This document shows positions 1 to 59,161 of a stretch of 64,000 nt of DNA, one piece after another. Both the position numbers and the translations under genes were made by a program. Numbering within the stretch: position 1 is the stretch's first letter; each line of letters starts with the position of its first letter. Origin of the DNA: Arenicellales bacterium (GTDB taxonomy: Bacteria; Pseudomonadota; Gammaproteobacteria; Arenicellales; JAJDZL01); contig OZ243980.1 of assembly GCA_965214875.1 (NCBI GenBank), forward strand, positions 1,102,190 through 1,166,189, given 5' to 3'. The notes beneath the pieces are model-generated. The model was not told where the DNA came from and searched no databases. It worked only from the letters and a program-made list of their open reading frames with translations.

Positions 1-1666
1 GGATTGCGGGCGGCATCCGCCCAGGCGGGCGCCTCCGGCAGCCGGATCGTCGCTTGGAAACGGGTTCGGAGACGCTAGGCGGCGCGCAGGCGCGCGCGGC
101 GGGCGAGCCGCTTGCGCTCCTGGTCCCGCAGCAGCCGCCCGAGCCGCTCGGGGTTCGCCGCCAGCGCCGACAGCGCCGCCGCCCGCTCGAAGCCGCGCTC
201 GCCATGGGCGCGCGCCCGCCCGAGCCCGCAATGCTCCAGATGATTGATGGCCGACTCGACCGCCGGATGCTGCCGGCGCGCCGCCTGGAACCATTCCTGG
301 CCCTCGCGCGCCGCAGCCTCGGCATTCGGCCGGCCCTTGGCCGGCAGCGCGCACTCGTCGAGCCGCGCGCCGAGCTCGGCCTGATTCGCCGGCGAGTGGA
401 AGCCGCGGTCGAAGCTGCAGGCCCGAAGGTCGGCGAACCGCTCCATCGCCCCCTCGACCAGCGCCGCCGCATGGCCGGCGTCGCCGCCCTGCCACATGAT
501 CCGGCGGTGCAGGATGAACCGGCGCTGGTCCTCGACCACGGCGACCGGCACGCCCAGCTCCTGGCGCACGCCGGCCTTGCCCTCGGCCACCCAGCGGGTG
601 TGCGGCTCGAAGATCGAGAACGCCTTCTCGCCGTGCGCGATGGTCTCGCCCCCGAGCAGCCGGCGCCTAGCCTGCTCGAGCTGGCGGCGCGCATGGCCAA
701 GATAGCCCTCGAGCTCGCATGCCAGCGCGTGCTCGCAGGCCGTCAGCGGCAGCTCGGCGGCCTGCGCCAGCGTCGCCTCGGCGCGCCCGGCCAGGCGGGC
801 GCTCAGCGACAAATGCCGCTCGACCCGCCCAGGATGCTTGCGGCTGCGCCTCGACACGCGCACCCGGTCGAACCGCTTCTTGACCTGCCGCGATAGATGC
901 TCATGCTGTCGCCAGCCGCCGAGCCCGGCGCTGTCCGCCAGCCTGGCCGCGGTGCGCACCGCGCAGCGCAGCGCGTCCCGCAGCAGGTCCGCATCGGTCG
1001 GATAGTGCGCGTCGGTCTCCACGCAGAACGAACCGGCCCGCCCGCGCAACGGCTCGCCAGGCTTTTTTCCGGCCGCCTCGCGGCCCGACCCGGCCACCAG
1101 CCGCCCGATCCCGGACAGCAGCTTCGGACCCGAAAGCGAGACGTTGTCGACCGCCGCCTGCTGCTCGCAGGCCTGCCCGAGCGCCGGCGAATGCCCCGGC
1201 ATCCGGCGCACCAGCCCGTCATGATTGGCCATGTGCGCCAGCCGGTCGAAGTCGCAGCCGAGCCCCTGCTCGGGCACGCCAGCGCCAGAATGCGCCAAAG
1301 GTCCATGCCCGGCCGGCGTCCTTGCGCGCCGCCGGCGCGACCTCGGCCTCGAGCAGCTCGAACACCCGCCGGCGCAAGGCCTTGCTTGCGCAAAGATGCC
1401 GCAGGCCGAGCAGGATGGCCGGGATGTCGTCGCGCGACTTGGCGCCGGTGTGGATGTTCTCGATCGGCACGGCGCCGATCTCGAGCTGGGCGGAGTGGGC
1501 CAAGCGCATCGCTTTTTCCTCGAAGATTGCGGCGAAACGGGGCGTTTCGCCCCATTTCGGCGGGAAATCCGCGCTTCCGCCGAATTCTTCGCCGCCGCCG
1601 CTCGCCGCTAAGCAATTGTTTTCAATCAGCAACGATATCACATTTTGGTTTTCTGGCAAGCACTAG
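1..1666 (-). mobile_element. Decayed ISNCY/IS5-like insertion sequence; far end probably outside the window
   Basis: Very GC-rich block containing a split DDE transposase. A terminal-repeat-like end reads ctagtgcttgccagaaaacc on the minus strand from 1666. Confidence 0.75.
75..1509 (-). pseudogene. ISNCY-family transposase, frameshifted
   Basis: Pieces lie in different frames: MRLAHSAQLEIG..KSRDDIPAILLGL, GRRPGMDLWRIL, then ETDAHYPTD, EKAFSIFEPHTRW, SFDRGFHSP, RRQHPAVESAINHLEHCGL. Confidence 0.8.
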
Positions 1667-1690
1667 CTAGTGTCTGCCAGAAAACAAAAA
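1643..1690. repeat. Abutting inverted repeat (two IS-end-like arms) centred on CTAG|CTAG
   Basis: ttttggttttctggcaagcactag is followed directly by ctagtgtctgccagaaaacaaaaa, a near-perfect reverse complement. Confidence 0.8.
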
Positions 1691-2125
1691 CTATTTTATT
1701 ATTCAATGCCGTTGCGGTCCCAGCGTTGTTGCCAGCTTGCGCTGATATTGTTCGCGAATCGAAAGGATGCTCTTGATAGATATCGCAGACAACGCGGAGC
1801 AAGGCATCGGCGCTTCTCGTCGACAGCACGCCAGGTTGCATGAAAGGCGGCGAAGGGGGCATTCGGGCGGATTAGGCGAGCTGTTCAAGGGCAGGTCGGA
1901 AAATGCCGCTGCTTCCACTGCTTGGCACGATGTCCGTGCATGCCTGAAAGCCTGGCGAAGCCTGAGCGATTGGATTCGTTCGGTTGAGTGTCGGACTGCG
2001 GTTCCAACGTGGCAATTTCCAATCTGCAAGCCGGCCCGATCGTGTAGAATAAGTGTTGCGAAAGTGCGCGGATTGCGGTAATCCGTGTGCGGAAGAGAAT
2101 GCAGAAAACAAAGGAGACGTTTCTA

Positions 2126-2737
2126 ATGGCATCGAGTCTGGCGGCGCATGCCTACGACACGCTTTCGATTGCGAGGAGCCTTGAGCGGGACTACGCGTTC
2201 GGCGAGAAGCAGGCCGAGGGGATAGCGCGGACCATCCACGAGCATCTGGTCGCCAATGTCGCGACCAAGGATGATCTTGAGAATCTTCGCGTCGAGCTGA
2301 TCGGCAGGATTGTCGAGCTGGACGGCAAGATAGACGAGGTTCGCGTCGAGCTGATCGGCAGGATTGTCGAGCTGGACGGCAAGATAGACGAGGTTCGCGT
2401 CGAGCTGATCGGCAGGATTGACAATCTAGACGGCAAGATAGACGAGGTTCGTGTCGAGCTGATCGGCAGGATTGTCGAGCTGGACGGCAAGATAGATGAG
2501 GTTCGCGTCGAGCTGATCGGCAGGATTGTCGAGCTGGACGGCAAGATAGGCGCGGTTCGCAGCGAGTTGGATGGCAGGCTTGTCCAAGTTCACCGCGAGA
2601 TTGTTGCGTTAAATGGCAGGGTGGATCGTCTAGAAGACAGAATTGACAATCTCGGTAAAGCTTTGACTTTTCGAATGGGTGCGATGATCGCAACGGGGAT
2701 AGGTTTGCTGGCGGCATTGCAAGCTGTCATCGGGTGA
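2126..2737 (+). CDS. CCDC90/DUF1640-like coiled-coil protein with C-terminal membrane anchor
   Basis: RBS aaggag at 2111 and ATG at 2126. N-terminal YDTL..ARSL...FGEKQAEGI...VATKDDL motif, heptad-like repeats, hydrophobic C-terminus. Confidence 0.8.
   Translation: MASSLAAHAYDTLSIARSLERDYAFGEKQAEGIARTIHEHLVANVATKDDLENLRVELIGRIVELDGKIDEVRVELIGRIVELDGKIDEVRVELIGRIDNLDGKIDEVRVELIGRIVELDGKIDEVRVELIGRIVELDGKIGAVRSELDGRLVQVHREIVALNGRVDRLEDRIDNLGKALTFRMGAMIATGIGLLAALQAVIG
2288..2557 (+). repeat. Five tandem 54-bp in-frame repeats (RVELIGRIVELDGKIDEV)
   Basis: Unit cgcgtcgagctgatcggcaggattgtcgagctggacggcaagatagacgaggtt starts at 2288, 2342, 2396, 2450 and 2504 with few variants. Confidence 0.95.
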
Positions 2738-3161
2738 ATCCGGTATCGTTCAGCTGGACATGCTTATGCATCAAACTTTGCAGTGCTGCCGCTAAGTTGC
2801 CGTCTCATTGAAGTTTGACGTAAGGGGCGTTTCGTGTGCAAAGCGGGTGCTGTAGCAGTGTTGTCACGAAACCATTCCCCTCTTCCCATTAATGCGGGAC
2901 CAACGAAGGTGGCCTTGTCATCCGAGTAGGCGATGGAGACAAGCCGATACCGCATATCCGCCTTCTTGGCATCATCTTTCTGAGTCTTGCCAATCTTTGT
3001 GTATTTGGCGCAGTTGTGCCAATTGGAAGTTCGGCTCAACTTTCGGGGTGATGCAATCCGTCTGTCGAATCGCCGAAGTTCAATCAAGCATCCGAACTTT
3101 TCTTTACCGATGCTAAGGCTGTCTCGATTGAATTTCGGCGCAGCGCAGTAGATTTGCACCC

Positions 3162-4376
3162 ATGCATGAGCATTACGAAATTATCAAACATGTCGACCGT
3201 CTTATCAGCGATACTGGAGAATACTCGCCTTTGCGTTTGCTGGTCACCTCTGGATGGGTTGTCTTGGAAGGATGGCAACTTTGGAATGCCGGCGATATCG
3301 AAACTCTCGATTCATACTTCACGCTCGATGCCTCAACATTGTGCCAACATCTTGATTTTGCTCAGAAACACGTAAACCAATTGAATTTTTTTGCTATCAA
3401 TCAGGATCGCGGCAGCCAAGATCAAAATTCTGCAGCCGATAAACCCGCTTCCTGCAACCGTGCCATAAACGAGCTGTTGCTTTCGCGTTTTCAACGCGAG
3501 AAAAATGCAAGACAACTTGATCTTTTCATCGACAACAGCGTTCAGCGTTCCTTGCATTGGAAGTTGGTCGAATGCCTGATTGAAGGCGAAGCCGATTCAG
3601 CGCGGGCCGTACTAGCCAAGCTCGCCGAGGTGGATATGAAATTCTCGCATCGCCATGAAGCGGAGAGTTTGATTTTGGCGGTGGAAGCGTCGCCGCCGCA
3701 AGGTAAAGACCACGCCTTAGAAAATCTACGGCAAATGGAGCGGCAATGGGAGCCGAGCGCAAAAGTTTTAATGACCTTGCAGACTGACCGGCTCGACCGG
3801 TTTATTCGGCCATTGTGGCGCGAAATCGCGACAGCTCTCGAAAATGAACCGTTCGACCCCTCTGATCCGAGTAGCCATGCGTCAAGAGCCTATTTTGAAT
3901 GCCGTGAATGGGAAAAAGTAGAATCATCAGTACTATCCGTGCCGGATTATCGAAAACATTGGGACCTTCTGACACGAATGGGCACTGCGAAGTGGATGCT
4001 TGGCAAGCACATCGATGCGCGCAAGTCATGGACTGAAATCTGCTTTTGTGCCCCGGAACACTTCCCCAAAGTGGTTGGTTCACCCGATTTTCTGGATAAG
4101 GCATTGCAAAGCGTGTGGTTCAATACCCAACTGGCCGACGTGGAAAATGTAATCACCCCGCAATGGTTTCCCGCATGTCTGCTCATTGCAAATCCGTCAA
4201 TGTCGACAGTTTTTGAGCGACGTGACGATTGCGACGACCCATCTCGAGCATTCAACATGATCAAGGATCTGTTGCATCTCCCAAAAGGATCCGATCAGTC
4301 GATCGGACTTCGCAGGCGGGTTCAAGCGATGCACGAAGGCTTGCTCCAATACTACATGCAAAAGCAGTCAACCTGA
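3162..4376 (+). CDS. Hypothetical protein (largely helical, possibly TPR-like)
   Basis: 404-aa ORF with protein-like composition; no motif recognised. Confidence 0.7.
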   Translation: MHEHYEIIKHVDRLISDTGEYSPLRLLVTSGWVVLEGWQLWNAGDIETLDSYFTLDASTLCQHLDFAQKHVNQLNFFAINQDRGSQDQNSAADKPASCNRAINELLLSRFQREKNARQLDLFIDNSVQRSLHWKLVECLIEGEADSARAVLAKLAEVDMKFSHRHEAESLILAVEASPPQGKDHALENLRQMERQWEPSAKVLMTLQTDRLDRFIRPLWREIATALENEPFDPSDPSSHASRAYFECREWEKVESSVLSVPDYRKHWDLLTRMGTAKWMLGKHIDARKSWTEICFCAPEHFPKVVGSPDFLDKALQSVWFNTQLADVENVITPQWFPACLLIANPSMSTVFERRDDCDDPSRAFNMIKDLLHLPKGSDQSIGLRRRVQAMHEGLLQYYMQKQST

Positions 4377-4539
4377 CAGCGTTGACAGATATGAGAGTGT
4401 CGCCTGTTCTCGATAATGAGCGCACCGTTTGGTGCAAGTCTGCCAATCCTGCCAGTCGGGCAATACACGTATAATTTTTCCCACATACGCCGCCGCATGA
4501 GCTGTAATTCCGACTTTCGCATGTCTGCCGCATATCGCC

Positions 4540-7500
4540 ATGGAACGAAAAAGCCTGCTTGAAATCTTCGCGACGCATCCTGTCGCAATGAACGTGTTGA
4601 TGTTGGTCGTTCTCGCCTTGGGAATCGGTGCCTTTCAGCGCATCAACTTCCAGTTCTTCCCATCCTTCACTGTGCCGGCAATCTCGGTAGACACGACATG
4701 GCAAAGCGCATCCGCTGAAGACGTCGAGCGGTCGATAACAAATCGATTGGAGCTCGATTTGAAAAACATGGACAATCTCAAGCAGATTACATCCACATCC
4801 AGAAGCGCACGGTCGCGAATCGTTCTCGAGTTCGAAGATGGTGCGAATATCAGTGACGCGCTTGATGATGCGAAGCAAATTGTGACGCTTGCCGCCAGCT
4901 CGCTGCCGGAAGAGGCGGAATTGCCCGAAGTGGTTCTGATTGAGCAATACGAAGTCGTAGCCAAAGTGATCGTTACCGCTTCGCATCCCGATCAGTTGCG
5001 GGGTTTGGTGAACGACTACCGCGACGAGCTGCTGGCGGCTGGAATTGGAAAAGTGGATATTTCCGGTCTGCCCGAAGAGGAGATATCCATACAGATTCCA
5101 AGCGAGCGACTGCGTGAAATTCAAATGAATCTAAATCAGGTAGGGCAGCGCATTCGAGCTTCATCTATCGATGCCCCGGTGGGCCTGCTGGGCCGCAACG
5201 ATGCCGCGCGTCAGCTGCGATTCATCGAGCAGCGGCGTAGTGAACGTGAATTTGAGAATATTACTGTTTTAGCCGATGATGATGGCAGTCTGGTAAAGCT
5301 TGGCGATATTGCTGAGATCCAGCGACGTGCCAAGTCCGATCAGGTGACCGTGGCGTTTCAAGGCAAGCCGGCAGCCATACTGACGCTGAAACGATTGCAA
5401 TCAGCCAACACGCTTGAAAACGCGGACATTCTATATGCCTGGTTCGACAGCAAAAAGCCGACGCTGCCTCCTAGCGTCGATATCTTCATTCACGACGACC
5501 GATCGGTTTCGCTTAGGGGGCGTCTTTCGGTGCTTGTGAAAAACGGGCTTGTAGGCTTGCTGCTTGTACTCACAGTCTTGTTCGTCTTTCTCAATTTCCG
5601 TTTGGCATTCTGGGTCGCAGCAGGAATTCCAGTGTCTATTTTTGGCGCATTAGGCTTGCTCTATATGGTTGGCGGTTCATTGAACATGGTTACCATGTTC
5701 GCCTTGATCATGACTCTCGGCATCATTGTCGATGATGCGATTGTGGTGGGTGAAGACGCCTTGCACCGGTTCAATCATGGCGACTTGGCCGCGCAAGCCG
5801 TGCAGCGCGCGGCGCGAATGATGTTTCTGCCGATTCTCGCCGCATCGGCAACAACGATTTTCGCATTCTTGCCGGTTACCATTGTTCCAGGGCCAATTGG
5901 ACAAATAATGGCCTCTTTGGGCATCGTAGTGGTCTGCGTTGTCGCGATTTCACTGGTTGAAGCGTTTCTGATTCTCCCCGGTCACCTGAATCATTCGTTC
6001 AAGAAGCTGCGCGGCAAGGCTCCATCCAGATTCTCTCAAGCGGTGGACCGGAGCTTCTCGCGGTTTCGAGATGGGCCGTTCCGAAGTCTGGTCAGCCTTT
6101 GCATCCACAGGCCGGTGCTGGCGATTTCGGTTTGCTTGGCAATCGTGATCCTCACCGTGGGATTGGTCGCTTCCGGGCGGCTGGGATATACGTTTTTCCC
6201 AACGCCCGAACTTGATAGGATTTTTGCCAATGCGAGCTTTGTTGCAGGTACGCCAAGCGACAAGATTGACGACTATCTGGCGCAGGTTGAAAAAGCGCTG
6301 CTTGAAACGGAATCGGAATTGGGTGACGGACTCATTTCCTCGCACTACGTTCAGCACGGCGTAGTCGTTCAGGTGGATGATACCGATGCGCTTGGCAGTC
6401 AGCACGGCTCAGTCGTAGTCGAGCTGGTTCCTTCTGACTCCAGAGACGTTCGCACGGCGCAGTTCATGCGCACCTGGGAGCAAAAACTTGAGGATGCGCC
6501 GGGCTTGGAGAATCTGATCTTGTTCTTGCCAAGTGCTGGGCCAGCTGGGGCCGATATTGAAATCAACCTGATTGGTGACGACCGGCATCGCGTCAAGCGA
6601 GCCGCAGAAGAATTGACACAATACCTGAAAACGCTAGCTGGAGTCTATGGCGTAAAGGATGATACCAGCTACGGCTATCAGCAGCGCGTGATGACGCTGA
6701 CACCTAGAGGCGAATCGCTAGGATTGAACACTAAGGAAATTTCCCGCCAGCTTAGTCCGGCAATCGAGGGGCAAACGCTTCAATCCTTTACTTCTAGGTC
6801 TGAGGAGATCGACGTTGTGCCTAAATTGCCGGACTCAGAGACCAATTTTCTTGGCAATATGGAGAATATCTGGATTCAGCTTCCCTCCGGTCAGTCGATA
6901 CCGTTGCTGGATGTGGTCAGATTCGATCAACAGCGCGGGTTCGATGTGCTTTTGCGCAAGGACGGCCGGTTTACGATCGCCGTTACAGGCGATGTAGATC
7001 CAACAAGAAATAATGTGCGCGAGGTACTATCCGAACTGGAGAGCAACATTGTGCCGAATCTTGTGAAGAAGCATGGTGTTGACTGGACCTACGGCAGATC
7101 AACAAGAGATCAGACCGCAGTCGAAGAATCGATGAAGTTTGGCGGGGCAATCGCGCTGCTATTGATCTACCTGACGCTAACCTGGGCATTTGGATCCTAT
7201 GTCTGGCCAATTTTCGTCATGGCGGCGATACCGTTTGGAATTGTCGGTGCGATGTGGGGACACTATGCGCTTGGGTTTCAGCTCTCAATTGTTTCCATAT
7301 TCGGAATCATTGGACTGTCAGGGATTGTAGTGAATAATTCTATCGTGCTGGTCATTCGATACAAGCAGAACATGGAGCAGGCGATGATGGATTCCAAGTC
7401 GGCAATGATTGAGGCTTCGTGCCGACGGTTCAGACCGGTTTTGCTGGCCTCGATCACAACGATTGCCGGGCTTTTGCCCCTCTTGTTTGAAGATTCGACT

Positions 7501-7689
7501 CAGGCGGAATTTCTGAAACCGATGGTGGCTGCGATTTCGTTCGGGCTTGGATTTTCAACGGTTCTCGTGCTGTTCTTTGTTCCTGCACTTTTGTCATCCT
7601 TTGAAACGCTAAGGATGCGCATGAAACGCAAAATCCCATCAACTGATCAGTACTCTGGTCCTGATGATGCTCTGCCCTCTGCGCAGTAG
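4540..7689 (+). CDS. RND efflux transporter permease (AcrB/AcrD/AcrF family)
   Basis: 1049 aa. Motifs GIIVDDAIVVGE, GIVVNNSIVLV and RRFRPVLLASITT; two periplasmic loops with transmembrane bundles. Confidence 0.95.
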   Translation: MERKSLLEIFATHPVAMNVLMLVVLALGIGAFQRINFQFFPSFTVPAISVDTTWQSASAEDVERSITNRLELDLKNMDNLKQITSTSRSARSRIVLEFEDGANISDALDDAKQIVTLAASSLPEEAELPEVVLIEQYEVVAKVIVTASHPDQLRGLVNDYRDELLAAGIGKVDISGLPEEEISIQIPSERLREIQMNLNQVGQRIRASSIDAPVGLLGRNDAARQLRFIEQRRSEREFENITVLADDDGSLVKLGDIAEIQRRAKSDQVTVAFQGKPAAILTLKRLQSANTLENADILYAWFDSKKPTLPPSVDIFIHDDRSVSLRGRLSVLVKNGLVGLLLVLTVLFVFLNFRLAFWVAAGIPVSIFGALGLLYMVGGSLNMVTMFALIMTLGIIVDDAIVVGEDALHRFNHGDLAAQAVQRAARMMFLPILAASATTIFAFLPVTIVPGPIGQIMASLGIVVVCVVAISLVEAFLILPGHLNHSFKKLRGKAPSRFSQAVDRSFSRFRDGPFRSLVSLCIHRPVLAISVCLAIVILTVGLVASGRLGYTFFPTPELDRIFANASFVAGTPSDKIDDYLAQVEKALLETESELGDGLISSHYVQHGVVVQVDDTDALGSQHGSVVVELVPSDSRDVRTAQFMRTWEQKLEDAPGLENLILFLPSAGPAGADIEINLIGDDRHRVKRAAEELTQYLKTLAGVYGVKDDTSYGYQQRVMTLTPRGESLGLNTKEISRQLSPAIEGQTLQSFTSRSEEIDVVPKLPDSETNFLGNMENIWIQLPSGQSIPLLDVVRFDQQRGFDVLLRKDGRFTIAVTGDVDPTRNNVREVLSELESNIVPNLVKKHGVDWTYGRSTRDQTAVEESMKFGGAIALLLIYLTLTWAFGSYVWPIFVMAAIPFGIVGAMWGHYALGFQLSIVSIFGIIGLSGIVVNNSIVLVIRYKQNMEQAMMDSKSAMIEASCRRFRPVLLASITTIAGLLPLLFEDSTQAEFLKPMVAAISFGLGFSTVLVLFFVPALLSSFETLRMRMKRKIPSTDQYSGPDDALPSAQ

Positions 7690-8184
7690 TGCGTCTCGCA
7701 AAACGGCTTCGACAAGCAAATACGTTTCCGACGCAATCTGTAGCGACATCTCAGCTTTGGCATAAGCCGATGGCCATTCAGTCAATCGGAAACTCAAGCC
7801 ACAGAGCTTTTCGGCATGATCTATAAAGCCTGCTTTTTGCTTGATGAGCGGATGCGCAGATCGCTTGCGACATTGATTTTCTTCCGGTTCAGCTACGGAT
7901 TATCCCGGCACGATGCGCTTTGATGACTAGCTTGGCGCTGTCGAAGTTTCAAAACACTCCGCGTATTTCGGAAAAATGGTGTAATGCCATGCAAATTGCC
8001 GACCAGGCTGAATTGCGTCGCTCGCTTTAGCGCGAAGCAAGCCGATTACTAGGTGGACGATTGATCGCAAATGCTATTTTGCCCGCGTTGTTCCGAAAGC
8101 GAAACAGGCGGCTGCATCAGACCGCTTCATTCGCATCGCGCGGCGTACAGTTGCAGAATCCGAAAACGAAGCAATTTTGTCGAT

Positions 8185-9842
8185 CCCAAAATCCGCGTTA
8201 GAGATTTTTTTGGGGCGGATTTTGCCGAAATCCGGGGCGCGGAGAGATTTTGGCGCTCGCCGCGGCGATGCCCGGGCGGGCTTGCGGGCGGGACGCGGCC
8301 GGAACGCGGCCGGAAAAGGGCGGAGGAGCGGAACCGGGGCGAAAGATCAATGACAGTCCGCAACGCGCCGGGACGCAGCCGATTTTTTTGTCGTGCGCGC
8401 GATGCTTTTTTTTTTGCGTTTCCGGCGGCTGCGGCGCCAGGGCCATCGCCCGGATCATGCCGATGGCGTCGCACAGCTTCAAGGCCCGGCCCCTGGCATG
8501 GCGCACGATCTTGCCCGCCCCGCAGCAGAGCCGGCGGCGAAAGGTCTCGATGCGCATCGACTCGCAGCTCGCATCCAGCACCTGGCGCATCAGCGCGAAC
8601 AGGTTGAACGCGAGCATGCGCAGCGCGGAATGCAGCGCGTTGGCAGCGAAGTCGCTGCACGGGGGATGCGCCGCGCCGAAGCCGCTGCGAAGCTCGCGGA
8701 TGCGGTTCTCCGAGTCTTCCCCTCTGCGGCTGCATCAGCGGACCGCCCGCGAGTCGCTCCGCCGGCAGAAGCTGGTCGCCAGCGCCCGGCATATGCAGCC
8801 GCCCTGCGACAGGGTGTCGCCGGCCTGCGGGCAGCCGGGCTCGAGCTCCTGCCGGCCGGACTTTCGCCTCCGCCGCACGACCGCCGCGGACGACGCTTCG
8901 GGCGTGCCGTTCATCGAGTGCAGGAACCGCGCCGTCTGCTGCGCCAGGCTCGCCGCCCCGTCGCGCTCGATGAAGGGCTGCTGCCGCGACTCGTCCAGCG
9001 CCCCGGTCTGCCCGGCCACGCTCGCGTCGAACCTGGCGCGGATCGCGTAGCCGATTCCCCGGCTCGTGAAGTGGTTGATGATCCTCGCCTGATACCCCGC
9101 CGCGTCGATGCGGGCGCGACGCGCCTCGGCGCCTTTGGGCAGCGCCCGCTCGCACTGGCGGACGAACTCGCAGTTGCGCGCGTTCGGCGAGACCGGGCCG
9201 CCCCTGAACTCCGCACCCGCCGCCATGCCGGTCTCGGCGATGTGGCCGACGATCGGCATGCAGCCCCGCTCCTTCTTGCATGCGGACTCCGCCGAAGACT
9301 TCTCGCAGCGCCGCGGTCGCGTCGATGTCCAGGGCCGCCCTTTTGCGATGGTGCAGCGCGACCGCCAGCAGCCGGCGGTCCGCCAGCTGCAGGGCATGCA
9401 GCGTGCGGCGCTGCGCTCCGCAGCGCCGCAGCCACCGGCCCAAGGCATCGTCGCCCGGCAGCCGGCGGATGCCGAGCAGCTCCAGCAGCGGCCGCTCCTC
9501 GCGCAGCTGCGCCACCGCGCCCGGATGCCGCGAGCCCTCGTGCATCATCAGCATGAACGTCGTCAAATACGCCCCCGGGCGCAAGCCGCGGTTGCTGCCC
9601 GGCTCCGGCACCGGCCGCTCGAAATGGAAGTCGAGCCCCAGCTTGCGGATCAGCTCGGCCAGCGCCGCCAGGCCGCTTCGCGAAGCCGATTTGTCTTTCG
9701 TGGTCGAAATCTTGCAGGATCGGATGTCCATAAAGCCTTGCTCCGATCGGGTCCGCCCAACGGGTGAAATTTTGTGTTGTTAAAAACCCGCATTATGCAA
9801 GGCTTTATCCCCTTTTGCAGCCACCCTAACGCGATTTTAAGG
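8185..9842 (-). mobile_element. IS1380-family element with imperfect TIRs and 5-bp target duplication TCGAT
   Basis: Ends cccaaaatccgcgttag (8185) and ctaacgcgattttaagg (to 9842) are inverted repeats. tcgat lies at 8180-8184 and again at 9843-9847. Confidence 0.9.
8410..9731 (-). pseudogene. IS1380-family transposase, multiply frameshifted; 3' end approximate
   Basis: EPGSNRG, LDIDAT, MPIVGHIAETG..EFRGG, ARIDAAGYQ, ENRIRELRSGFG and LAFNLF..GKIVRHAR are spread over several frames. Confidence 0.85.
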
Positions 9843-9960
9843 TCGATCTTGGATATGAAAATGATCGCCGTATCTGGTAAAATATCCGCTGGTTCATCTC
9901 TTCTTACCTTCGTGTCTTTTTGAAGGCGCCTCTTGACTATCTTCCATCTCCGATTTCTTA

Positions 9961-12570
9961 ATGGATATCTCTGAATTTGCAAAAGAAACAGTTCTTGCCG
10001 ACCTGGAAAAGGAGATGCGCGCCTCGTACCTCGACTACGCGATGAGCGTGATCGTTGGACGTGCGCTGCCGGATGTTCGAGACGGGTTGAAGCCGGTGCA
10101 TCGGCGGATTCTGTATGCGATGTCCGAGATGGGCAACGACTGGAACAAGCCTTATAAGAAATCGGCGCGCATTGTCGGTGATGTGATCGGTAAGTATCAC
10201 CCGCATGGAGACTCGGCGATCTACGATGCGATCGTTCGCATGGCGCAGGACTTTTCCTTGCGCTATCCGCTGATTGACGGTCAAGGCAACTTTGGGTCGG
10301 TAGACGGCGACTCGCCGGCCGCGATGCGGTACACGGAAATCAGGCTGTCGCGCATTGCCCATGAGCTGCTTGAGAACATCGACAACGAAACCATCGATTT
10401 CGGACCGAACTATGATGAGACGGAGCGGCAGCCTCTCGTCCTTCCCGCCCGCCTGCCCAATTTGCTGGTGAACGGGTCCGACGGCATCGCCGTCGGCATG
10501 GCGACAAAGATACCGCCGCACAATCTTTCCGAAGTCATTTCTGCGTGTCTAGCGCTGATCGACGACAGCAATCTGGGCCTTTCGGATTTGATGGAGTTCA
10601 TCGGGGGACCGGATTTTCCGACTGGAGCGATAATCAATGGACATGCGGGCATCATCGACGCATATCGCGACGGCCGCGGCTCCATTCGCATTCGAGCGAA
10701 GTCCGAAATTGTGCCCGGCGAGAAGTCGGAAGGCGACTGCATCGTCATCTCCGAACTTCCGTTTCAGGTCAACAAGGCTAGATTGATCGAGAAGATCGCT
10801 TCGCTGGTGCGGGAAAAGAAAGTCGAAGGCATCAGGAACCTTCGCGATGAATCAGACAAGTCTGGCATGAGAGTGGTGATTGCGCTTAAGTCTGATGCGG
10901 TCGCCGAAGTGGTATTGAACTATCTGTACATTCATACAAAGCTCGAAACGGCCTATGGAATCAACTTCGTTGCGCTTGCAAACAATCAGCCAAGACGGTT
11001 CTCTCTCAAAGATCTGCTTGGAGAATTTATCGAACATCGCCGCGAAGTCACCCGCAGGCGGTTGCTGTTCGAGCTTCGCAAGGCAAAGGCAAGAGCCCAT
11101 ATATTGGAAGGTCTAGCCATCGCCTTGTCCAACCTTGACGAAATCATCGCGGCCATTCGCCGTTCGGGCAATCGGCTAGAGGCGGTTGCAGCTCTTAAGG
11201 GAGCCATTTGGCCTCCGCATGATGTAAAAGGCATGCTAGGCGAAAACACGCAGCAGTACCGTCCAAGCGATATCCCTGCCGACACGCCGGGCTTTACCAT
11301 AGATGGCTACCTGCTTTCCGATGCTCAGGCGGCCGCGATCGTTGACATGCGACTTCATCGCTTGACAGGACTTGAGCGTCAGGCCACCATCGACGAGTTC
11401 AAGTCGATTCTAGAAAAGATCGAAACCAACATCAGACTGCTTAACTCGCCTCAAGAGTTCATGAATGTGATCAAGCAAGAACTTAAAGACTTGCGTGACC
11501 AGTTTGCAAAGAATGATGAGCGACGAACTCAGATAGTCGAAGAGCAGATCGGTGTCGAATACGAAGACATGATCAAGCGCGAGGATATGGTGGTGACCAT
11601 ATCTCACGAGGGTTATGCGAAGCGTCATCCTGTATCCGGCTATTCCGCGCAGATGCGCGGCGGCAAAGGCAGGATCGCCGCGACCAGCAAGGATGACGAT
11701 TTCATTAGCACCATGTTTGTAGCCAACACGCACAACACGCTGCTTTGCTTCACCAGTGCGGGGAAGGTTTTTCAGATCAAGGTGTATCAGTTGCAGCTGG
11801 CCGGACGCACGGCAAGAGGTCGGCCGCTGGTCAATCTGCTCCAGCTCGGCGAGAATGAAAAGGTTACGTCCGTTTTGCCGCTGGACGGATCTGAAGATGC
11901 CAAGTACATTGTCATGGCGACTCGAGCTGGGCGCATTAAGAAATGCGAATTGAAACGCTTTGCCAATGTGCGCTCCAATGGCTTGCGGGCCATTGAATTG
12001 CGCGACGAAGACAAGCTCGCCGGCGTGAGCATAACCGACGGAGAGGGCGATGTGATGCTGTTCAGCAATGCGGGGCGCGCCATCCGGTTTCCCGAATCAT
12101 CCGTGCGGTCCATGGGACGTACTGCACGCGGCGTCAAAGGCATGAAGCTTGAGTCGGGCCAGAAGATCATATCGATGATACTCGTCCCTAAAAACGATAA
12201 AGATTCAGTCGCATTGCTGATTAGTAGCGACGGCCTCGGCAAGCGCACCTGCATGTCGGATTTTCCGCAAAAAGGACGCGCCGGCAAAGGAGTTGTAACC
12301 TTGCCATCGAAAAAGCGGGGCAACACCGAAACCATGGGCGCTTTAATGGTGAGCGAAACCGACGAGCTGGTTTTGATTACTGACGGCGGCACGCTGATTC
12401 GCATGAAAGCGTCGAACATCTCAATAATCGGCCGCTCGGCTGCAGGTGTGCGACTGATGAGGCTGCACGAAGAAGAGGCTTTGGTCGGTGCGGCGATTGT
12501 GGTCAATGCCGAAGACGATTCGCGGCGCGATATCGAAGATCCCAATCCAGTGGATGATACTGCCGAATAG
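9961..12570 (+). CDS. gyrA: DNA gyrase subunit A
   Basis: [45 protein letters not shown], GyrA-box-like QMRGGKG. Confidence 0.99.
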
Positions 12571-23026: not shown

Positions 23027-23577
23027 GGGGAAAGGCGGGTGCGCGAAAAATTTTGAGGCAGCATGGCGCTTGGTAGCAATCCAGCAGCCGAAAGGCGGGA
23101 GAAGGTGCCATGCAAACCGAATGTCCGCACCGTAGATTCTGCCGTCTCGATTCGATCCGCGACGAACTTTCGCCGCAGGCCGCTGAGCGCTTCGACAAGC
23201 TCGCGCTGTTCGACCAGCTTTGACGCGAAGGCGCGACCGAGCCGACCGCCCTGAATGCGGTCGGCTGCTCCCGAGCGACGCTCTACCGCTGGAAAAGGTG
23301 CCTGCGCGCCTGCTCGTTCGCCACCGCCGCCTGCGCCTCGAAGCTCCTCGACCGCCTGCCAGCAGCGCGGCATCGCACTGTTCGTGCTGCCGCCCAAAAG
23401 CTCCGATTGCAATGGCTGTCTCGAGCGCACCACCGCCGGCCAAATTCGAGCGCTACTACAAAGCCTGCCGGCCGCATCAGGCGCTCGGACAACGTACGCC
23501 CATGCAGGCGCATAATCAGAACTTCAACCAAAGCGCACTTGCCGCCTGAAAAGTCTCACATGTATTGAACCAGTACA
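23027..23577 (+). mobile_element. IS481-family internally deleted derivative, copy 1 (left end truncated)
   Basis: SRATLYRWK, GIALFVLPPKS..CNGCLER, Y...RPHQALG..TP. Right end gtctcacatgtattgaaccagtaca. Confidence 0.8.
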
Positions 23578-23594
23578 TTGTATTGAACCAGTAC
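23561..23594 (+). repeat. Tandem duplication of the IS481 right-end tip
   Basis: tgtattgaaccagtac at 23561-23576 and 23579-23594. Confidence 0.9.
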
Positions 23595-25525: not shown

Positions 25526-25622
25526 CTTCGGCAAGCCGGCGCATCGCTTCCAGCTCTGGTTTGGACCAATTGAGCCTTCTAATCCCGCTGACGCGGAATT
25601 AGAAGGTTCGTAAGCAACATGA

Positions 25623-26131
25623 TATCCGGGGTCAGATACATGCGGGGCTGCCCGCCCCTTCCTGAAGGACGCAGTCCGAAGGGAAGGGGCGGGCGCGCGA
25701 AAACATTTTCAGGCAGCATGGCGCTTGATAGCAATCCAGCAGCCGAAAAGCGGGAGAAGGTGCCATGCAAACCGAATGTCCGCACCGTAGATTCTGCCGT
25801 CTCGACGCGGTCGGCGACAAACTTTCGCCGCAGGCCGCCGAGCGCTTCGACAAGCTTGCGCTGTTCGACCGGCTTCGCAGGCGACCGCCCGGCCCGCCAG
25901 GCGCCGTTCGTGCTGCCGCCCAAAAGCTCCGATTGCAATGGCTGTGTCGAGTGCGCCGGCGAGCCGGGCGTGGGCGCGCTGAACGTCGAGCTGGCCCGGT
26001 TCGAGCGCTTCTATAACGCCTGCAGGCCGCATCAGGCGCTCGGGCAAACGGCGCCCATGCAGGCGTATAATGAAAACTTCGACCAAAGCGCGCTTGCCGC
26101 CTGACAGTCTCATATGTATTGAATCCGTACA
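25623..26131 (+). mobile_element. IS481-family internally deleted derivative, copy 2
   Basis: Homologous to copy 1. Left end tatccggggtcagatacat and right end atgtattgaatccgtaca are imperfect inverted repeats. Confidence 0.8.
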
Positions 26132-37179: not shown

Positions 37180-39109
<1,930 letters not shown>

Positions 39110-39708
39110 TGAATTTAGTTTCTACAAAGGGTCTGGGGGCGAGCAGATACCTTACATATGTATTTCGAAGATTTAGCCGTATGAGCCCATTCGAATCGAT
39201 TTCATAGCTGTATTTCATCCCGTTGCCATTGAAGATTTGTTTTCCAATATATGACTTTTCTGGCAGATGCTAAACATCAGTATTTGCAGCCTTAAACATG
39301 ACGTAAAAATCAACCAAGCAGTTTCGCTAAGGTTTGCCCTCTATTTTCGATGCCGGCGAAACAATGGAACACTTGTCAAGTAGATAATACAACATACTGA
39401 TTTCGCTTGATTAAATTGATCGGATTTAAGATAATACGATCAAGGTTGATCTTAAATCATTATTGCGGAAATTTACCCGAGTCGCCATTCGTGTGAATGC
39501 TGCTTTCATTCATCAAGCGGGCCTCGCCTCTGTGAATCATTCGGTAGATGTCATATTTCTTCTTTTTCGGCAGTGCGAATTCAATTTGAGCAAAATTGCT
39601 TTTCGGTTGAACTAATGGCTTGCAAGCAATCAAAACTTTAGTACGGCTAAAGCGCTCTGATAATCAGCCAAATAGCTGGAAATATTTCCAAGAGCCAGAA
39701 TTCATTCA

Positions 39709-42066
39709 ATGAAATATCCAAGCATAAGCTATTCCTTGCCGCGCGCCCGAATCGACATGGCGATGGTCATTGTTTTGGCGGCATCTTTGACAATGTTCGC
39801 GATTCTGGCTACCTACTCCGCAAGCGACCCAGGCTGGACGCATTCGGGTTCATCTCCTGAAGTGATGAATATCGGAGGCGTGGCAGGGGCCTACATAGCA
39901 GACATCGGGTATTCACTGTTTGGTTCCATGGCATTTTTCATTCCGATTTGCTTCGGTATGTTCGGTTGGAAGTATCTTTATCGCTGGAAACGCAACGACA
40001 AAGACCAGCTGCTCGCACCAATGATTTTTCTTGCTGGTTTTTTTCTGACCTTGATTGGCGGGTGCGGGTTTGAAAACATCTATGGGCTGAGATTTAGTAC
40101 CCATTTGTCCAGCCCGTCCGGTGGCGTGCTCGGCGGCGTGATCACCCAGAGCTTGTCGAATTATTTGCCGTGGCAAGTCCTAGTGTCCATGTTCTTGTCG
40201 ATGTCGATTGCCGGAACGATGCTCATTGGCTTGCCTTGGATGAGAATTTCGGAGCTCGTGGGCAAATTCCTTTTCGCGATGGGTGGAGCGATGTTTCGCA
40301 AATGGCCCGACAGACGAAAACGGATGGCCAAACCTTCCGAACTCGAGATGTCGGATGCCGGAAAAACTGCCACTTCAAAAAAATCATCGAACAATTTGCG
40401 CGACAAGTTGCCGAAGTCAAAAAAGAAGAGACGAAAGCTTAACATAGCCGAACGTAATGAGCCCGAACTCGGTTCCCTCGGTGTTGGGGTAGACGATGCG
40501 CCTTCGGGCATGAGCTCTCAAACCGCAACCCCAACTCTCAAATTTGCAGCTGAAGAAAAACCTAAAGCTGCCCCGCAGCCGAAGGCTAAGCGTTCAATTC
40601 GTGGCAAGTTGCCAGAAATTGCATTGCTTGATGCTCCAGAAGTATCACAAAATGCCTACTCTGAAGAGGATATCGAGAAGATGTCCCAGCGGGTAGAGCA
40701 AATGCTTGAGGATTTCGGGGTCGAGGTGAGAGTCGACAACGCGCGCCCTGGGCCGGTCATCACGCAACTGGAAGTCGAGCCCGCGCCCGGCATCAAGGCA
40801 AGTCAAATCGTAAACCTGTCCAGAGATCTTGCCCGGTCGCTATCGGTATCGAGTGTTCGAGTGGTCGATAACATTCCCGGCAGTTCCCATGTCGGCATTG
40901 AAGTTCCAAACCGTACCCGCGAAACGGTCCGGCTGTTTGATGGCCTGCAATCAAGACAATACAAAAGCAGTGCCTCGCCCTTGACGGTAGTCCTCGGCAA
41001 GGACATTCGCGGAGGTACCGTCGTGTCGAGCCTTGCAAAAATGCCTCATCTGCTGATTGCCGGAACAACCGGGGCGGGCAAATCGGTTTGTCTGAATGCG
41101 ATTCTATTGAGTTTCTTGTACAAGTCGACTCCTGATAGCCTCAGGCTGATCATGGTTGACCCGAAAATGCTGGAATTTTCCGTCTATGAGGGAATTCCCC
41201 ATTTGCTTACGCCGGTCATTACCGATATGGAGAAGACCGAAAACGCGCTGCGCTGGTGCATACAGGAAATGGAGTTGCGCTATGAGCTCATGTCAAAGTT
41301 TAAGGTGCGCAACCTAGACGGTTTCAATGATCTGGTGCGCGATTCCGAACCGATTCCGCATCCGTCATTTGAGGATGCGGATGAACCGGTCTACTTGACA
41401 GAGTTGCCGTTCATCGTTGTAGTCATCGACGAGTTGGCGGATCTGATCATGGTTATGGGGCGAAAGGCCGAAGATTTGATTATCCGCATTGCGCAACGTG
41501 CCCGCGCTGCCGGCATCCATCTGATCGTTGCAACACAGCGACCGTCGACAGATGTCATTAAAGGCCTGCTCAAAGCCAATATCCCCACCCGTATCGGGTT
41601 TAAGGTTGCGTCGAATGCCGATTCTCGTACCATTTTGGACCAGCCGGGTGCCGAAACTTTGCTGGGACAGGGGGATATGCTGTTTATCGCACCTGGCACT
41701 AGCGATGTTGCGCGAGTTCACGGCGCATTCGTTTCGGATGATGAGGTCAAGCGGGTTGTAGATCACTGGAAGAGCGTTGATATGCCGCAGTATGTGGAAG
41801 ATGTTGTCGTCAATAAGGCTGCGAACTCAAGCGATTCAGGATTTTCCGGCAATGACACTGGTGGCGAAGGCGACGAGTTCTACGATAAAGCTGTGGACTA
41901 TGTGATTCGGCAGCGCCGTCCGACAATTTCTTCCGTCCAGCGTCAGTTTCGCATCGGCTACAATCGTGCCGCCAGAATCATTGAGGCGATGGAGGTTGCC
42001 GGAGTGGTTACTCCTGCCGATTCGACAGGCAAGCGCGAAGTGCTGGTTCCTCCACCGCAGGATTAG
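39709..42066 (+). CDS. ftsK: DNA translocase FtsK
   Basis: N-terminal TMs, GTTGAGKS, DELAD, ATQRPS, gamma domain QRQFRIGYNRAARI. Confidence 0.98.
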   Translation: MKYPSISYSLPRARIDMAMVIVLAASLTMFAILATYSASDPGWTHSGSSPEVMNIGGVAGAYIADIGYSLFGSMAFFIPICFGMFGWKYLYRWKRNDKDQLLAPMIFLAGFFLTLIGGCGFENIYGLRFSTHLSSPSGGVLGGVITQSLSNYLPWQVLVSMFLSMSIAGTMLIGLPWMRISELVGKFLFAMGGAMFRKWPDRRKRMAKPSELEMSDAGKTATSKKSSNNLRDKLPKSKKKRRKLNIAERNEPELGSLGVGVDDAPSGMSSQTATPTLKFAAEEKPKAAPQPKAKRSIRGKLPEIALLDAPEVSQNAYSEEDIEKMSQRVEQMLEDFGVEVRVDNARPGPVITQLEVEPAPGIKASQIVNLSRDLARSLSVSSVRVVDNIPGSSHVGIEVPNRTRETVRLFDGLQSRQYKSSASPLTVVLGKDIRGGTVVSSLAKMPHLLIAGTTGAGKSVCLNAILLSFLYKSTPDSLRLIMVDPKMLEFSVYEGIPHLLTPVITDMEKTENALRWCIQEMELRYELMSKFKVRNLDGFNDLVRDSEPIPHPSFEDADEPVYLTELPFIVVVIDELADLIMVMGRKAEDLIIRIAQRARAAGIHLIVATQRPSTDVIKGLLKANIPTRIGFKVASNADSRTILDQPGAETLLGQGDMLFIAPGTSDVARVHGAFVSDDEVKRVVDHWKSVDMPQYVEDVVVNKAANSSDSGFSGNDTGGEGDEFYDKAVDYVIRQRRPTISSVQRQFRIGYNRAARIIEAMEVAGVVTPADSTGKREVLVPPPQD

Positions 42067-52735: not shown

Positions 52736-53182
52736 GGTGGGGGGGGGTACTGCAACGCGAAAAGTTTTTCGTGAGTGTTCTGCTTGCGCGAATTCCACAT
52801 AATTCGCTCGCCAGTCTTCGGCGACCAGCTTGCACGCCATCCTCGGCGCGAAAGAGGTCAGCCTTGGCACCGGCAGGATCAGGAATGCCGGTTGTAGATC
52901 ACCAGCTCGATATTCGCGACGCTTGTCTCGAGCGACTAGCCGATCAGCTGGTCTCGCGGTCCCAGCTGACAGACTCCCGCGCCAAAGCCGGTCCTGCCTA
53001 GAACGCCGGGCAACTCCGAGACGATCTAGTACTGGAGCGGCCTGCCCGCCGATGCGCATCGGGCATCTGGGCCTGAGCTGACGGCAATTCGATGCCGAGG
53101 CGCGTGGCAAGTCTGGCCAGCACCGGACTGGCTATCACCAGATCAAGTGGCCAGCAAGCCGTTGCGCCGACAGCGTAAATGT

Positions 53183-53859
53183 TGGCAGGGTTCAGATACA
53201 TGCGGGACCGCCCGCCCCTTCCCAAAGGACGCAGTCCGAAGGGAAGGGGCGCGCGAAAATTTTTGAGGTGGCACAGTGCTTGAAAACAATCCAGCAGCCG
53301 AAAGGCGGGGAAAGCACCATGCAAATCAAATGTGCGCACCGCAAATTTTATCATCTCGATCCGACTCGCGACGAACTTTCGCTGCAGGCCGTCGAGTGCT
53401 TCGACAAGCTCGCGCTGTTCGACCAGCTTCGCTGCGAGGGCGCCTCGCAAGCTACCGCTCTCAAGGCGGCCGGCTACTCCCGAGTCACGCCCTGCCGCCG
53501 GAAGCGGGCCTGCGGGCGAAAGCCCGGCCAGATGGTGCAGATCGACCACGCGGGCATCGCCATCGATGGTTGGCTTCGCGATCAAGGAATTCAAAGCTGT
53601 TTTCCCGGTCTCGAAACTGTGCTGCATGCGTGCCTGATCGTGCGCCAACGCCGCCGGCCACTGCAGGTTCCGCAGTCCTGCGCCGGTGAGCTGAGCGCGG
53701 GCGCCCTCAACGTCGAGCTGGCCCGGTTCGATTGCCTCTGCAATGCCTGCCGGCCGCATCAGGCGCTCGGACAAACGGCACCCATGCAGACGCATAATCG
53801 GAACTTCGAACAAAGCGCGCTGGCCGCCTGAAAAGTCTCATATGTATTGAACCGGTGCA
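53183..53859 (+). mobile_element. IS481-family internally deleted derivative, copy 3
   Basis: Homologous to copies 1 and 2 and retains PGQMVQIDH. Ends ggttcagatacat and atgtattgaaccggtgca. Confidence 0.8.
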
Positions 53860-53937
53860 TTTTCTTGACAATGAAGGCTTTTCTTGCTGTTATGCAGCCA
53901 TTCATAGTAATCAAACAGTTCACAGGAGCTTGCCGAC

Positions 53938-55942: not shown

Positions 55943-57235
55943 CTACGGTAATGACAATGACCGCAAGTAGTCGCCAAATGATGGAATTGGAATCTTGTAC
56001 CGTTCCTGTATGCCAGCGGCGGGTGCCAATACTCCTACGTATAGTGCGTCAGTTATGAATTCATCGACGGTTTGACCCTTTTCCTTTCGCGCTGATGTTG
56101 TTAGCGAAGCGATTTCATCGTGCGACAAAGTGTCGCAAAAAGAGCCTTCTTCCCGCCTTGCCGCCAATGCCAGCTTCTTATACAGACTTGCACGATACGA
56201 ACCTGCCTCGATTCTAGCATCATAGTATGCGTTTTTACGCTCAATGCCTTTTTCAACGGCTTCGGCCAGCAAAGCTTGCTCAAGCTTGCCGCCATTGGCA
56301 CGAATGATGCGCCCGGCCGCCACGCCAATCCGGTTGATGTGCTGCGGCCAGCCATGGGACAATTCCGCTAATGCATTGACCCATATATCTGTTTCGCCTT
56401 CCGTTCCGCTGTAGTACGAATTTAGCATTCGCTTTAAGGCGCATTTCGAATCCTCGCCTGACAGCGGCTCAAGATTGGCGACTCGTTCGTCAGCAAGTCT
56501 CGACAACCCGCATTGTGCCAGTACGGTCTTGGTATTGCTCAGACCGAAAAAAGTGGTAACCAAAGAAATTCCCTGAGAATCTCGGTGTAAACAATCAAGA
56601 ACCTGTTTCGTCGTTGGCTGTACCGGTGTGTTTTGAGCTTCATCGATAAAGACGACAAAGAGAATGTTTTTAAGCAATGGAGCGGCATGCCCGAAAAGTT
56701 CTGCCGAAATCTGAAAATCCGAATGTTTGTCGATATCCGACTTGCCACCGACCGAAATCCCCGCTACCGTGAATCCGCGGCGGGACAATTCTTCAATTAT
56801 CTTTTTGCCAAGACCGAGCAAATGCCTCACCTTTTGCGTCTTCGCGCCAGACTCGATATTGGATAATCGCTGAATCTCCGTATCAGTCGCCCTTATAAGA
56901 GAAGACATGACATAGGCTGGCGAACACAAACCTCCTGGTGCGAGCGATACGGCAACCCAAGGTTCTCGAGCGGTCGAATGCTGCCTTACCGCCTCCATGC
57001 ATTCTTGCATCAGCGCCGTCTTGCCGGCACCGGGCGCACCCTGAAAGATTATTGATCCACCGCCAACATTGCCTCTCTGAAGGCTGTTGGCTACTCGGCG
57101 AAAAACTTCAAACTCGGTATCGCGTCCGCAAAAAAATGGCTCCCTGCCGACTTCGGCACGGTCGGTCCGATCAAGCCAATCATTTTCGTCGAGCGGCTGG
57201 GCCGGCAGCGGTTTCGCAAAACTCGATTGATTCAT
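55943..57235 (-). CDS. P-loop AAA-type ATPase (AAA_16-like)
   Basis: FCGRD.E, Walker A GAPGAGKT, Walker B VVFIDEAQ, S.GWPQHI. Confidence 0.88.
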   Translation of the reverse strand: MNQSSFAKPLPAQPLDENDWLDRTDRAEVGREPFFCGRDTEFEVFRRVANSLQRGNVGGGSIIFQGAPGAGKTALMQECMEAVRQHSTAREPWVAVSLAPGGLCSPAYVMSSLIRATDTEIQRLSNIESGAKTQKVRHLLGLGKKIIEELSRRGFTVAGISVGGKSDIDKHSDFQISAELFGHAAPLLKNILFVVFIDEAQNTPVQPTTKQVLDCLHRDSQGISLVTTFFGLSNTKTVLAQCGLSRLADERVANLEPLSGEDSKCALKRMLNSYYSGTEGETDIWVNALAELSHGWPQHINRIGVAAGRIIRANGGKLEQALLAEAVEKGIERKNAYYDARIEAGSYRASLYKKLALAARREEGSFCDTLSHDEIASLTTSARKEKGQTVDEFITDALYVGVLAPAAGIQERYKIPIPSFGDYLRSLSLP

Positions 57236-59040: not shown

Positions 59041-59161
59041 ACCTGAAGGCCATGCCGGAGAGTTTTAGTTTCTGCAAAGCTTGAGCGGCAGAAAAAACTT
59101 GTCTTACGTTTTCTCATTTGCATCGCTATAAAATAGTATATACCGCATATTTTTCCGGAGC

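Follow-up and report, generated by a model that had tools for sequence, protein, structure and literature searches.

What makes decayed insertion sequences (ISs) in a bacterial chromosome so much more GC-rich than the unique DNA around them? The question is raised by a stretch of 64,000 nucleotides from an Arenicellales bacterium (genome G000, one contig of 3,785,581 bases with 53.5% GC), which we refer to throughout as the window (G000:C1:1102190-1166189), and in which copies of an ISNCY-family and an IS1380-family element form two GC-rich islands. A first-pass annotation of the window proposed that these remnants had been hypermutated from A:T to G:C by a repeat-directed inactivation process acting preferentially on mobile or multicopy DNA, and listed three mechanisms: adenine-deamination-like editing, a reverse analogue of the repeat-induced point mutation (RIP) of fungi, and GC-biased conversion among copies. 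The third is the one that the data support. GC-biased gene conversion (gBGC) among the repeated sequences of one genome is, in our view, the probable explanation, because changes from A or T to G or C (weak to strong, W>S) exceed the reverse changes (S>W), GC content responds to copy number in the manner of a dose, mosaicism among copies is pervasive, W>S alleles are shared among copies and skewed towards high frequency, and the duplicated tuf genes show the same effect.

The genome is a metagenome-type assembly, and all copies were analysed as assembled sequences. GC1, GC2 and GC3 denote GC content at first, second and third codon positions, and coordinates are those of the window unless given with the genome handle.

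Two GC-rich islands in the window

The two elements, the pieces of the ISNCY transposase gene and the control region are as follows.

1-1675, minus strand: ISNCY-family element copy, about 1.65 kb, GC 0.722, passing the left end of the window
About 111-1280: main piece of the ISNCY transposase (tblastn)
About 1262-1515: N-terminal pieces of the ISNCY transposase, in two other frames (tblastn)
8163-9846, minus strand: degenerate IS1380-family copy, GC 0.684
38685-40932: single-copy control region separating trxB from the FtsK ATPase domain, with an AT-rich spacer

There are several features common to both islands. First, GC content is 0.715–0.79 over positions 1-1400 and 0.67–0.755 over 8201-9600, with abrupt edges (0.45 at 1601-1800 and 0.425 at 9801-10000); the unique DNA of the window is 0.524 GC. 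The remnants are thus far richer in GC than their host, as the annotation had it (72% for ISNCY and 68% for IS1380, against 52% in unique DNA). Second, stop codons are depleted in all six frames, again as described, with 23 in the ISNCY block against 53.5 ± 6.5 expected from mononucleotide shuffles, and 19 in the IS1380 block against 51.7 ± 6.7. Third, the dinucleotide TpA occurs at 0.23 (ISNCY) and 0.13 (IS1380) of expectation, compared with about 0.5 in host genes. The spacer between trxB (37761-38684) and the ftsK domain (40933-41547) had been noted as free of GC drift, and the control kilobase at 39001-40000 bears this out with 0.43 GC.

Neither copy appears to encode a working transposase. 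The ISNCY element has nine full-length copies in the genome at 94–100% identity, and the frame at 75-1298 on the minus strand matches the ISNCY model NF033593 with an E value of 8e-90 and 301.6 bits, short of the cut-off of 325; judged from its reading frames, the transposase gene in the window is frameshifted and split over three of them, and the copy is a remnant of the family and no working member. The IS1380 element is present in 18 copies of at least 1,500 bp (89.5–100% identity) and in many partial ones. Model NF033539 is matched by the N-terminal 140 aa of the frame at 8127-9731 on the minus strand, and the remaining match, at 8468-9301 (G000:1110657-1111490), contains one TGA and scores 143.5 bits without reaching the cut-off of 180. 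Both a frameshift near model position 146 and the in-frame TGA are common to about 25 other copies; together with the sub-cut-off score they indicate that the window copy is not an intact family member. Two other IS1380 copies in the genome have open frames, at 279 and 273 bits. All of the ISNCY and IS1380 lesions quoted in the annotation are present in the window copies (GCMP, ACKK, CICRA and RRRLC in IS1380; ETDAH, LLRDA and GLGR in ISNCY).

GC content rises with copy number

The two islands belong to a genome-wide pattern. There are 226 islands above 65% GC, together 290,800 bases; repeated DNA makes up 91% of the bases in windows above 65% GC, and such windows hold only 0.8% of the unique DNA. 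GC content climbs with the number of extra copies, from 0.522 in unique DNA to 0.536 with one extra copy, 0.582 with 2–4, 0.623 with 5–9, 0.649 with 10–19 and 0.685 with 20–49; it is 0.635 at 50 or more copies, mostly short elements. Low-copy repeats of at least 99% identity that are not IS-like have host-like GC. (Single-linkage clustering of the repeats was abandoned when 314 segments merged into one family.)

The effect is not confined to remnants. Two IS4-type families have GC contents of 0.73–0.75 and an IS481 family 0.66, and these IS4 and IS481 families show strong three-base periodicity, with GC3 at 0.87–0.91 and GC2 at 0.48–0.59; the open-frame IS1380 copy has GC1, GC2 and GC3 of 0.65, 0.50 and 0.91. 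The strong codon periodicity of IS4, IS481 and IS1380 copies indicates that the pressure acts also on elements that still look functionally selected. Diverged copies are mostly lower in GC than the main family over the same stretch (0.63 versus 0.695, and 0.633 versus 0.679), and have probably dropped out of the conversion pool.

A related genome, G015, carries at least 45 IS1380 copies with identical hidden Markov model (HMM) scores and open 501-aa frames, at 0.58 GC against 0.47 in their flanks; this suggests a very recent burst.

Polarised substitutions in two IS lineages

The direction of change was determined for the ISNCY lineage at nucleotides identical in five intact ISNCY genes (485–498 aa) of related genomes; here and below, substitution counts are site patterns against outgroup copies. 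These intact relatives are multicopy in genomes of the same bacterial family and share 52–59% protein identity with the window copy. Their GC content is 0.55–0.58, with GC1, GC2 and GC3 of about 0.64, 0.38 and 0.65, compared with 0.74 overall and 0.74, 0.61 and 0.86 in the window copy.

Transitions on the G000 lineage are almost entirely in one direction, with 28 A>G and 33 T>C against 2 G>A and 3 C>T, an excess that the annotation had drawn from family consensus sequences and that holds with intact relatives as the outgroup. The transversions are 11 A>C, 8 T>G, 4 C>A, 5 G>T, 24 C<>G and 6 A<>T. In all, W>S changes outnumber S>W changes by 80 to 14 on this lineage, against 162 to 175 in five control lineages pooled (Fisher p 3e-11); singly, the controls give 44:42, 29:26, 43:52, 35:37 and 11:18. 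Transversions taken alone are biased as well (19 W>S versus 9 S>W, controls 59 versus 72; p 0.037). Many of the changes lie at second codon positions of conserved residues, and would therefore destroy the protein. The context of the T>C sites is mild, with G at −1 in 0.38 against a background of 0.21 and no sharp motif, and among dinucleotides TA stands at 0.13–0.23 and AC/GT at 0.55 of expectation.

A database protein from another assembly, P0004, is 84% identical to the window copy and carries the peculiarities of the G000 ISNCY lineage. The pairs VNLLWDAM/ADLLRDAL, EKIP/ETIA, KGKAG/EGKAG, DIDHA/DAGHA and VLAANLKRLG/ALAANPERLG (P0004 first) mark it as an intermediate state of ISNCY decay. 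More widely, the ISNCY family has many copies in metagenome-assembled genomes (MAGs) labelled Arenicellales, Paracoccaceae (at least 18 in one genome), Candidatus Rariloculaceae and Vicinamibacterales, and so crosses between orders and phyla; its GC content is 8–15 points above that of its flanks in most of these hosts (e.g. 0.517 versus 0.405 and 0.699 versus 0.61).

For IS1380, proteins from other genomes are only 37–45% identical to the G000 copy (L015, L016 and L018-L020; the rest 18–21%), too distant for nucleotide polarisation, and changes were polarised by the open-frame clade and an 81%-identical outgroup within the genome. Transitions occur at 0.16–0.17 per W site in the W>S direction and at 0.04–0.05 per S site in the other. 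The open-frame copy of the genome retains GYMP, YIYRA and RRRLY and already reads ACKK, and within the family the HMM score drops from 192 to 107 bits as GC climbs from 0.68 to 0.72.

The tuf genes as a second case

One of the GC-rich repeats of the genome is tuf, the gene for elongation factor Tu (EF-Tu). Its two copies (G000:C1:2322405-2323589 and 2338988-2340172) share at least 99% identity and flank the rpoBC cluster, about 16.5 kb from each other. They have a GC content of 0.663 and a GC3 of 0.87, compared with GC3 values of 0.53–0.69 in the neighbouring fusA, rpoB, rpoC and rps/rpl genes, and their four-fold sites are A 0.00, T 0.02, C 0.34 and G 0.64.

This elevation is associated with duplication. 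In a survey of 23 genomes of the same bacterial family, taking as the measure tuf GC3 minus the GC3 of neighbouring frames, the excess ranges from +0.074 to +0.305 among the 13 two-copy genomes (at least +0.097 in 12 of them) and from −0.029 to +0.084 among the ten with one copy, where one-copy status in multi-contig assemblies could reflect a collapsed repeat. In four genomes of the order's other families, which also have two copies, the excess is −0.07 to +0.10. Polarisation of tuf four-fold sites against one-copy relatives left 4 usable sites, third positions being saturated (38–48% identity).

The tuf genes also bear on what the process is. Both are affected yet intact, and the effect is therefore neither specific to mobile DNA nor gene-inactivating as such. 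Of the proposal that mobile or multicopy DNA is targeted, the multicopy part holds and the mobile-specific part does not, tuf duplicates being affected equally. Repeat-directed inactivation does not fit either: stop codons are removed rather than created, tuf is intact, and the IS4, IS481 and IS1380 families keep their codon periodicity.

Sharing of alleles among IS copies

Exchange among copies was examined in 18 full-length IS1380 copies and nine ISNCY copies, and conversion is pervasive in both. The four-gamete condition fails for 0.60–0.68 of informative site pairs lying more than 100 bp apart and for 0–0.35 of those within 25 bp. Pairs of transversion sites fail in the same way in both families, and recurrent transitions therefore cannot explain the failures. 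Linkage disequilibrium (r2) is 0.33 within 25 bp and about 0.10 beyond 50 bp (permutation p 0.005). By their site patterns the copies appear to be fine-grained mosaics of one another.

Allele frequencies are skewed in the direction expected of biased conversion. With polarity resting throughout on outgroups within the genome, 19 of 63 W>S transitions in IS1380 have a derived frequency of 0.5 or more, compared with none of 40 S>W transitions (p 4e-5); for ISNCY, polarised by two older copies, the figures are 15 of 17 and 10 of 22 (p 0.008).

The strongest rival of gBGC is repeat-directed mutagenesis, in which a DNA adenine deaminase-like enzyme would make A:T>G:C changes in duplicated DNA and unbiased conversion would shuffle the products. 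It would account for the dominance and strand symmetry of the transitions (28 A>G and 33 T>C among 80 W>S changes), for the mild context effect (the G at −1, and the depletion of TA and AC/GT), and for tuf, as RIP affects any duplicate. New mutations in recent copies are where it parts from conversion. We collected 119 singleton variants from young clusters of three families and sought each allele elsewhere in its family. The allele was already present in other members in 111 of the 119 cases, and the shared alleles include all 60 W>S transitions and all 21 S<>S or W<>W transversions, where 10–36% would coincide by chance. Only the eight private alleles are unambiguous new mutations; six are S>W and two W>S, both of the latter transversions. 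The lack of private W>S transitions argues against hypermutation of individual copies. Polarising singletons by the majority allele gives, by contrast, conflicting results: those of IS481 and of the IS1380 open-frame clade are rich in W>S, which would suit a mutagenic enzyme, and those of ISNCY are rich in S>W (17 versus 3 in one count, 13 versus 1 in another). As the families conflict and the alleles are mostly shared, majority-polarised singletons were dropped as mutation spectra.

Three further observations speak against such an enzyme. First, the differences among the 18 IS1380 copies have a transition/transversion ratio (ts/tv) of only 1.9. Second, W>S transversions are in excess too. Third, the 64% G at four-fold sites of tuf is unreachable by transitions alone from the even composition of one-copy relatives. 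With this ratio, and with none of 60 W>S transitions private in young copies, neither adenine-deamination-like editing nor a reverse RIP, as the annotation had suggested, agrees with the data, and we consider mutagenesis aimed at repeats quite unlikely.

Candidate enzymes

Only two PF00383 matches were found in the genome (open frames of 242 and 406 aa), which we take from their size to be housekeeping genes (TadA or dCMP deaminase, and RibD); no extra deaminase of this family was found, other deaminase families not having been searched. Endonuclease V (EndoV) is present and intact, which rules out loss of deoxyinosine repair. A plain mismatch-repair mutator, or loss of mutS or mutL, had also been raised; MutS (1046 bits, an open frame of 862 aa) and MutL (552 bits, one frame of 608 aa) are both intact and unique DNA stands at 52.2% GC, and this explanation was ruled out.

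A gene for a Vsr-type T:G mismatch endonuclease lies 7.1 kb to the left of the window (match at G000:1094838-1095047, PF03852, E 3e-30).

G000:C1:1094826-1095248: Vsr locus

No methylase is present in the scanned frames flanking it, making this an orphan Vsr; elsewhere the genome has nine genes for C5-methylases. Of 24 other genomes of the family, 21 have Vsr, compared with 2 of 16 from the order's other families. The two-copy tuf genomes with no Vsr match are G016, with the lowest tuf excess of its class (+0.074), and G002 (+0.239). Repair of the Vsr type would yield a preference for transitions, strand symmetry and very short patches, as observed. The orphan Vsr is a candidate agent and no more, and that it is the main one is a tentative suggestion which we would sooner doubt than accept.

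A mechanism, and what weighs against it

Under gBGC, the copies of any duplicated gene or insertion sequence would repeatedly form heteroduplex with one another, and mismatches in it would be repaired in short patches, more often to G:C than to A:T. W>S variants would then spread through a repeat family and S>W variants be erased, and the whole family would climb in GC, more so with more partners. Where the protein is under selection (tuf and active IS4, IS481 and IS1380 copies), only silent sites would climb, to GC3 values of 0.87–0.97. Where selection has lapsed, as in the ISNCY and IS1380 copies of the window, conserved codons would also be replaced (Y>C, V>A, W>R, D>G, K>E), with TpA and stop codons lost from all six frames. 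We infer both the origin of the bias in mismatch repair of heteroduplex and the enzyme that would be responsible.

Several points weigh against gBGC, or at least against its simplest form. First, the bias is about 12-fold in transitions and about 2.6-fold in transversions, a difference that simple gBGC does not predict; a transition-specific step must therefore be added, either T:G repair or mutational input. Second, the majority-polarised singletons are W>S-rich in IS481 (21 versus 9) and in the IS1380 open-frame clade (44 versus 13), which at face value is what a mutational bias would give. Third, sharing of alleles could be explained by common ancestry as well as by conversion, the majority polarity then being wrong, and the private alleles number only eight. 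Fourth, the mosaic pattern is known from a metagenome-type assembly and not from reads. Fifth, the outgroup for IS1380 is a single copy covering about 72% of columns (1185 of about 1650), polarity otherwise coming from residues conserved in distant relatives. Sixth, tuf cannot tell gBGC from a mutator aimed at any duplicate, and the six one-copy genomes of genus g3 fall in one clade on the EF-Tu tree, so that the tuf contrast rests on few independent events. Finally, the link to Vsr is weak: G002, with no Vsr match, has a tuf excess of +0.239, and the T>C sites lack a sharp motif.

Selection for GC in repeats would produce much of the same pattern. GC-rich variants might be favoured through lower transposition or expression, or through escape from a silencer or nuclease aimed at AT-rich DNA, and be spread by unbiased conversion; this predicts a frequency skew and a dose response no different from those under gBGC, and the loss of TpA and stop codons could be read as selected. 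However, no common benefit is apparent for silent sites of tuf, dead IS copies and short repeats resembling MITEs (miniature transposable elements with inverted repeats), and conserved transposase residues are destroyed in copies that are already frameshifted, making this account very unlikely. A foreign origin, in which the IS families were imported from, or passed time in, very GC-rich donors and retained their composition, is extremely improbable: the ISNCY family does occur in MAGs of other orders and hence is mobile between hosts, and in most hosts examined the IS is richer in GC than its flanks, but the closest intact relatives come from the same bacterial family, with 0.55–0.58 GC, the closest outside protein (P0004, 84%) is an intermediate state and not a GC-rich donor, a GC2 of 0.61 together with frameshifts is unlike a working gene from a GC-rich host, and import explains neither tuf nor the gain in GC seen, within the genome, between open-frame and degenerate IS1380 copies.

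Other repeats of the window

Four further GC-rich repeats lie in the window.

23027-23594: short high-copy repeat, GC 0.614, 363 BLAST matches in the genome
25611-26158: short high-copy repeat, GC 0.617, 252 matches, with a faint IS481 C-terminal match
53162-53887: short high-copy repeat, GC 0.605, 309 matches
58701-59082: GC-rich repeat fragment, GC 0.691, 6 other matches

The elements to which the first three belong are about 280–700 bp long with a GC content of 0.60–0.68, and each has 250–360 BLAST matches. The IS481 scrap (25619-26104) has an E value of only 7.5e-4, and ten frames of the scraps at 23–26 kb and 53–55 kb matched no family besides it. These short elements may be MITE-like derivatives of an IS481-type element.

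Two other regions are repeated in a different way. At 1897-2584 (frame 2087-2737, plus strand) lies an open frame of coiled-coil-like sequence whose internal direct repeats are offset by about 108 bp; it has weak Pfam matches to coiled-coil families and three partial relatives elsewhere in the genome. The segment at 55947-57656 was considered as a young IS and rejected as such, belonging to a paralogue family of 65–74% identity with host-like GC; it has relatives at about ten other loci and an 85%-identical repeat of 211 bp at both ends.

Discussion

The process proposed here is a familiar one; what is unusual is its ectopic action, its extreme strength, its occurrence in a bacterium, and the erosion of transposase genes as a by-product. 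For bacteria, gBGC has been put forward on the ground that recombination and GC3 are correlated (Lassalle et al. 2015, PMC4450053). In the main text of that paper, as here, W>S variants are favoured where recombination occurs, against AT-biased mutation, and a by-product of GC-biased repair is proposed; the recombination is between genomes at the same locus and the GC3 shifts are modest, and the words ectopic, paralog, insertion sequence, duplicat and multicopy do not occur there. In the genome described here, by contrast, recombination is ectopic and within one genome, and the shift is 15–25 GC points. In a search of the full-text literature, which largely leaves subscription journals outside, no paper was found that connects bacterial insertion sequences or multicopy genes with gBGC.

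There are parallels in other systems. Eukaryotic multigene families (histone genes, rDNA, duplicated yeast and Arabidopsis genes) show gBGC, and there too ectopic concerted evolution makes sequences GC-rich, mainly at silent sites; those exchanges are mostly meiotic, whereas here the host is a bacterium and the families include insertion sequences with eroded coding capacity. Very-short-patch repair by Vsr of E. coli produces marker effects in phage lambda crosses and affects the frequencies of CTWGG and CCWGG; it converts T:G to C:G over a very short patch whatever the origin of the mismatch, and a Vsr gene is present here. The E. coli enzyme is, however, tied to the motif of one methylase, whereas here there is neither an adjoining methylase nor a sharp motif. 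The RIP of fungi acts on duplicated DNA, mobile or otherwise, and its transitions, on both strands, alter base composition. It differs in making C>T changes, lowering GC, creating new stops and leaving mutations private to each copy; here GC goes up, stops are lost and W>S alleles are shared. Enterobacterial tufA and tufB evolve in concert by gene conversion, and the two tuf copies here, in their high identity and their spacing about the rpoBC cluster, resemble them. We know of no report of an extreme rise in GC3 tied to tuf duplication, and there was none among the matches listed by a literature search on this subject.

The role of gBGC in bacteria and the enzyme behind it are still argued from weak genome-wide correlations, and this genome offers a large internal contrast: repeats lie 15–25 GC points above unique DNA, and silent sites of tuf are 98% G or C only where the gene is duplicated. 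Among about twenty closed genomes of relatives there is variation in the number of tuf copies, in IS load and in Vsr content, and with the contrast above this makes the question directly testable. There is also a warning for annotation, in that GC-rich islands open in all six frames are no evidence of foreign origin or of genes.

For the biology of these bacteria, conversion bias can erode transposase genes, a route of IS decay opposite to the usual AT drift. It could even be that in this family of the Arenicellales the ectopic repair of heteroduplex is biased to G:C strongly enough to act as a one-way ratchet that overwrites the A- or T-containing conserved codons of numerous IS families, and so as a RIP-like brake on transposons with no dedicated sensor, the enzyme being the family-conserved orphan Vsr that would serve nine cytosine methylases; in this full form we hold the proposal to be unlikely, if not negligibly so.

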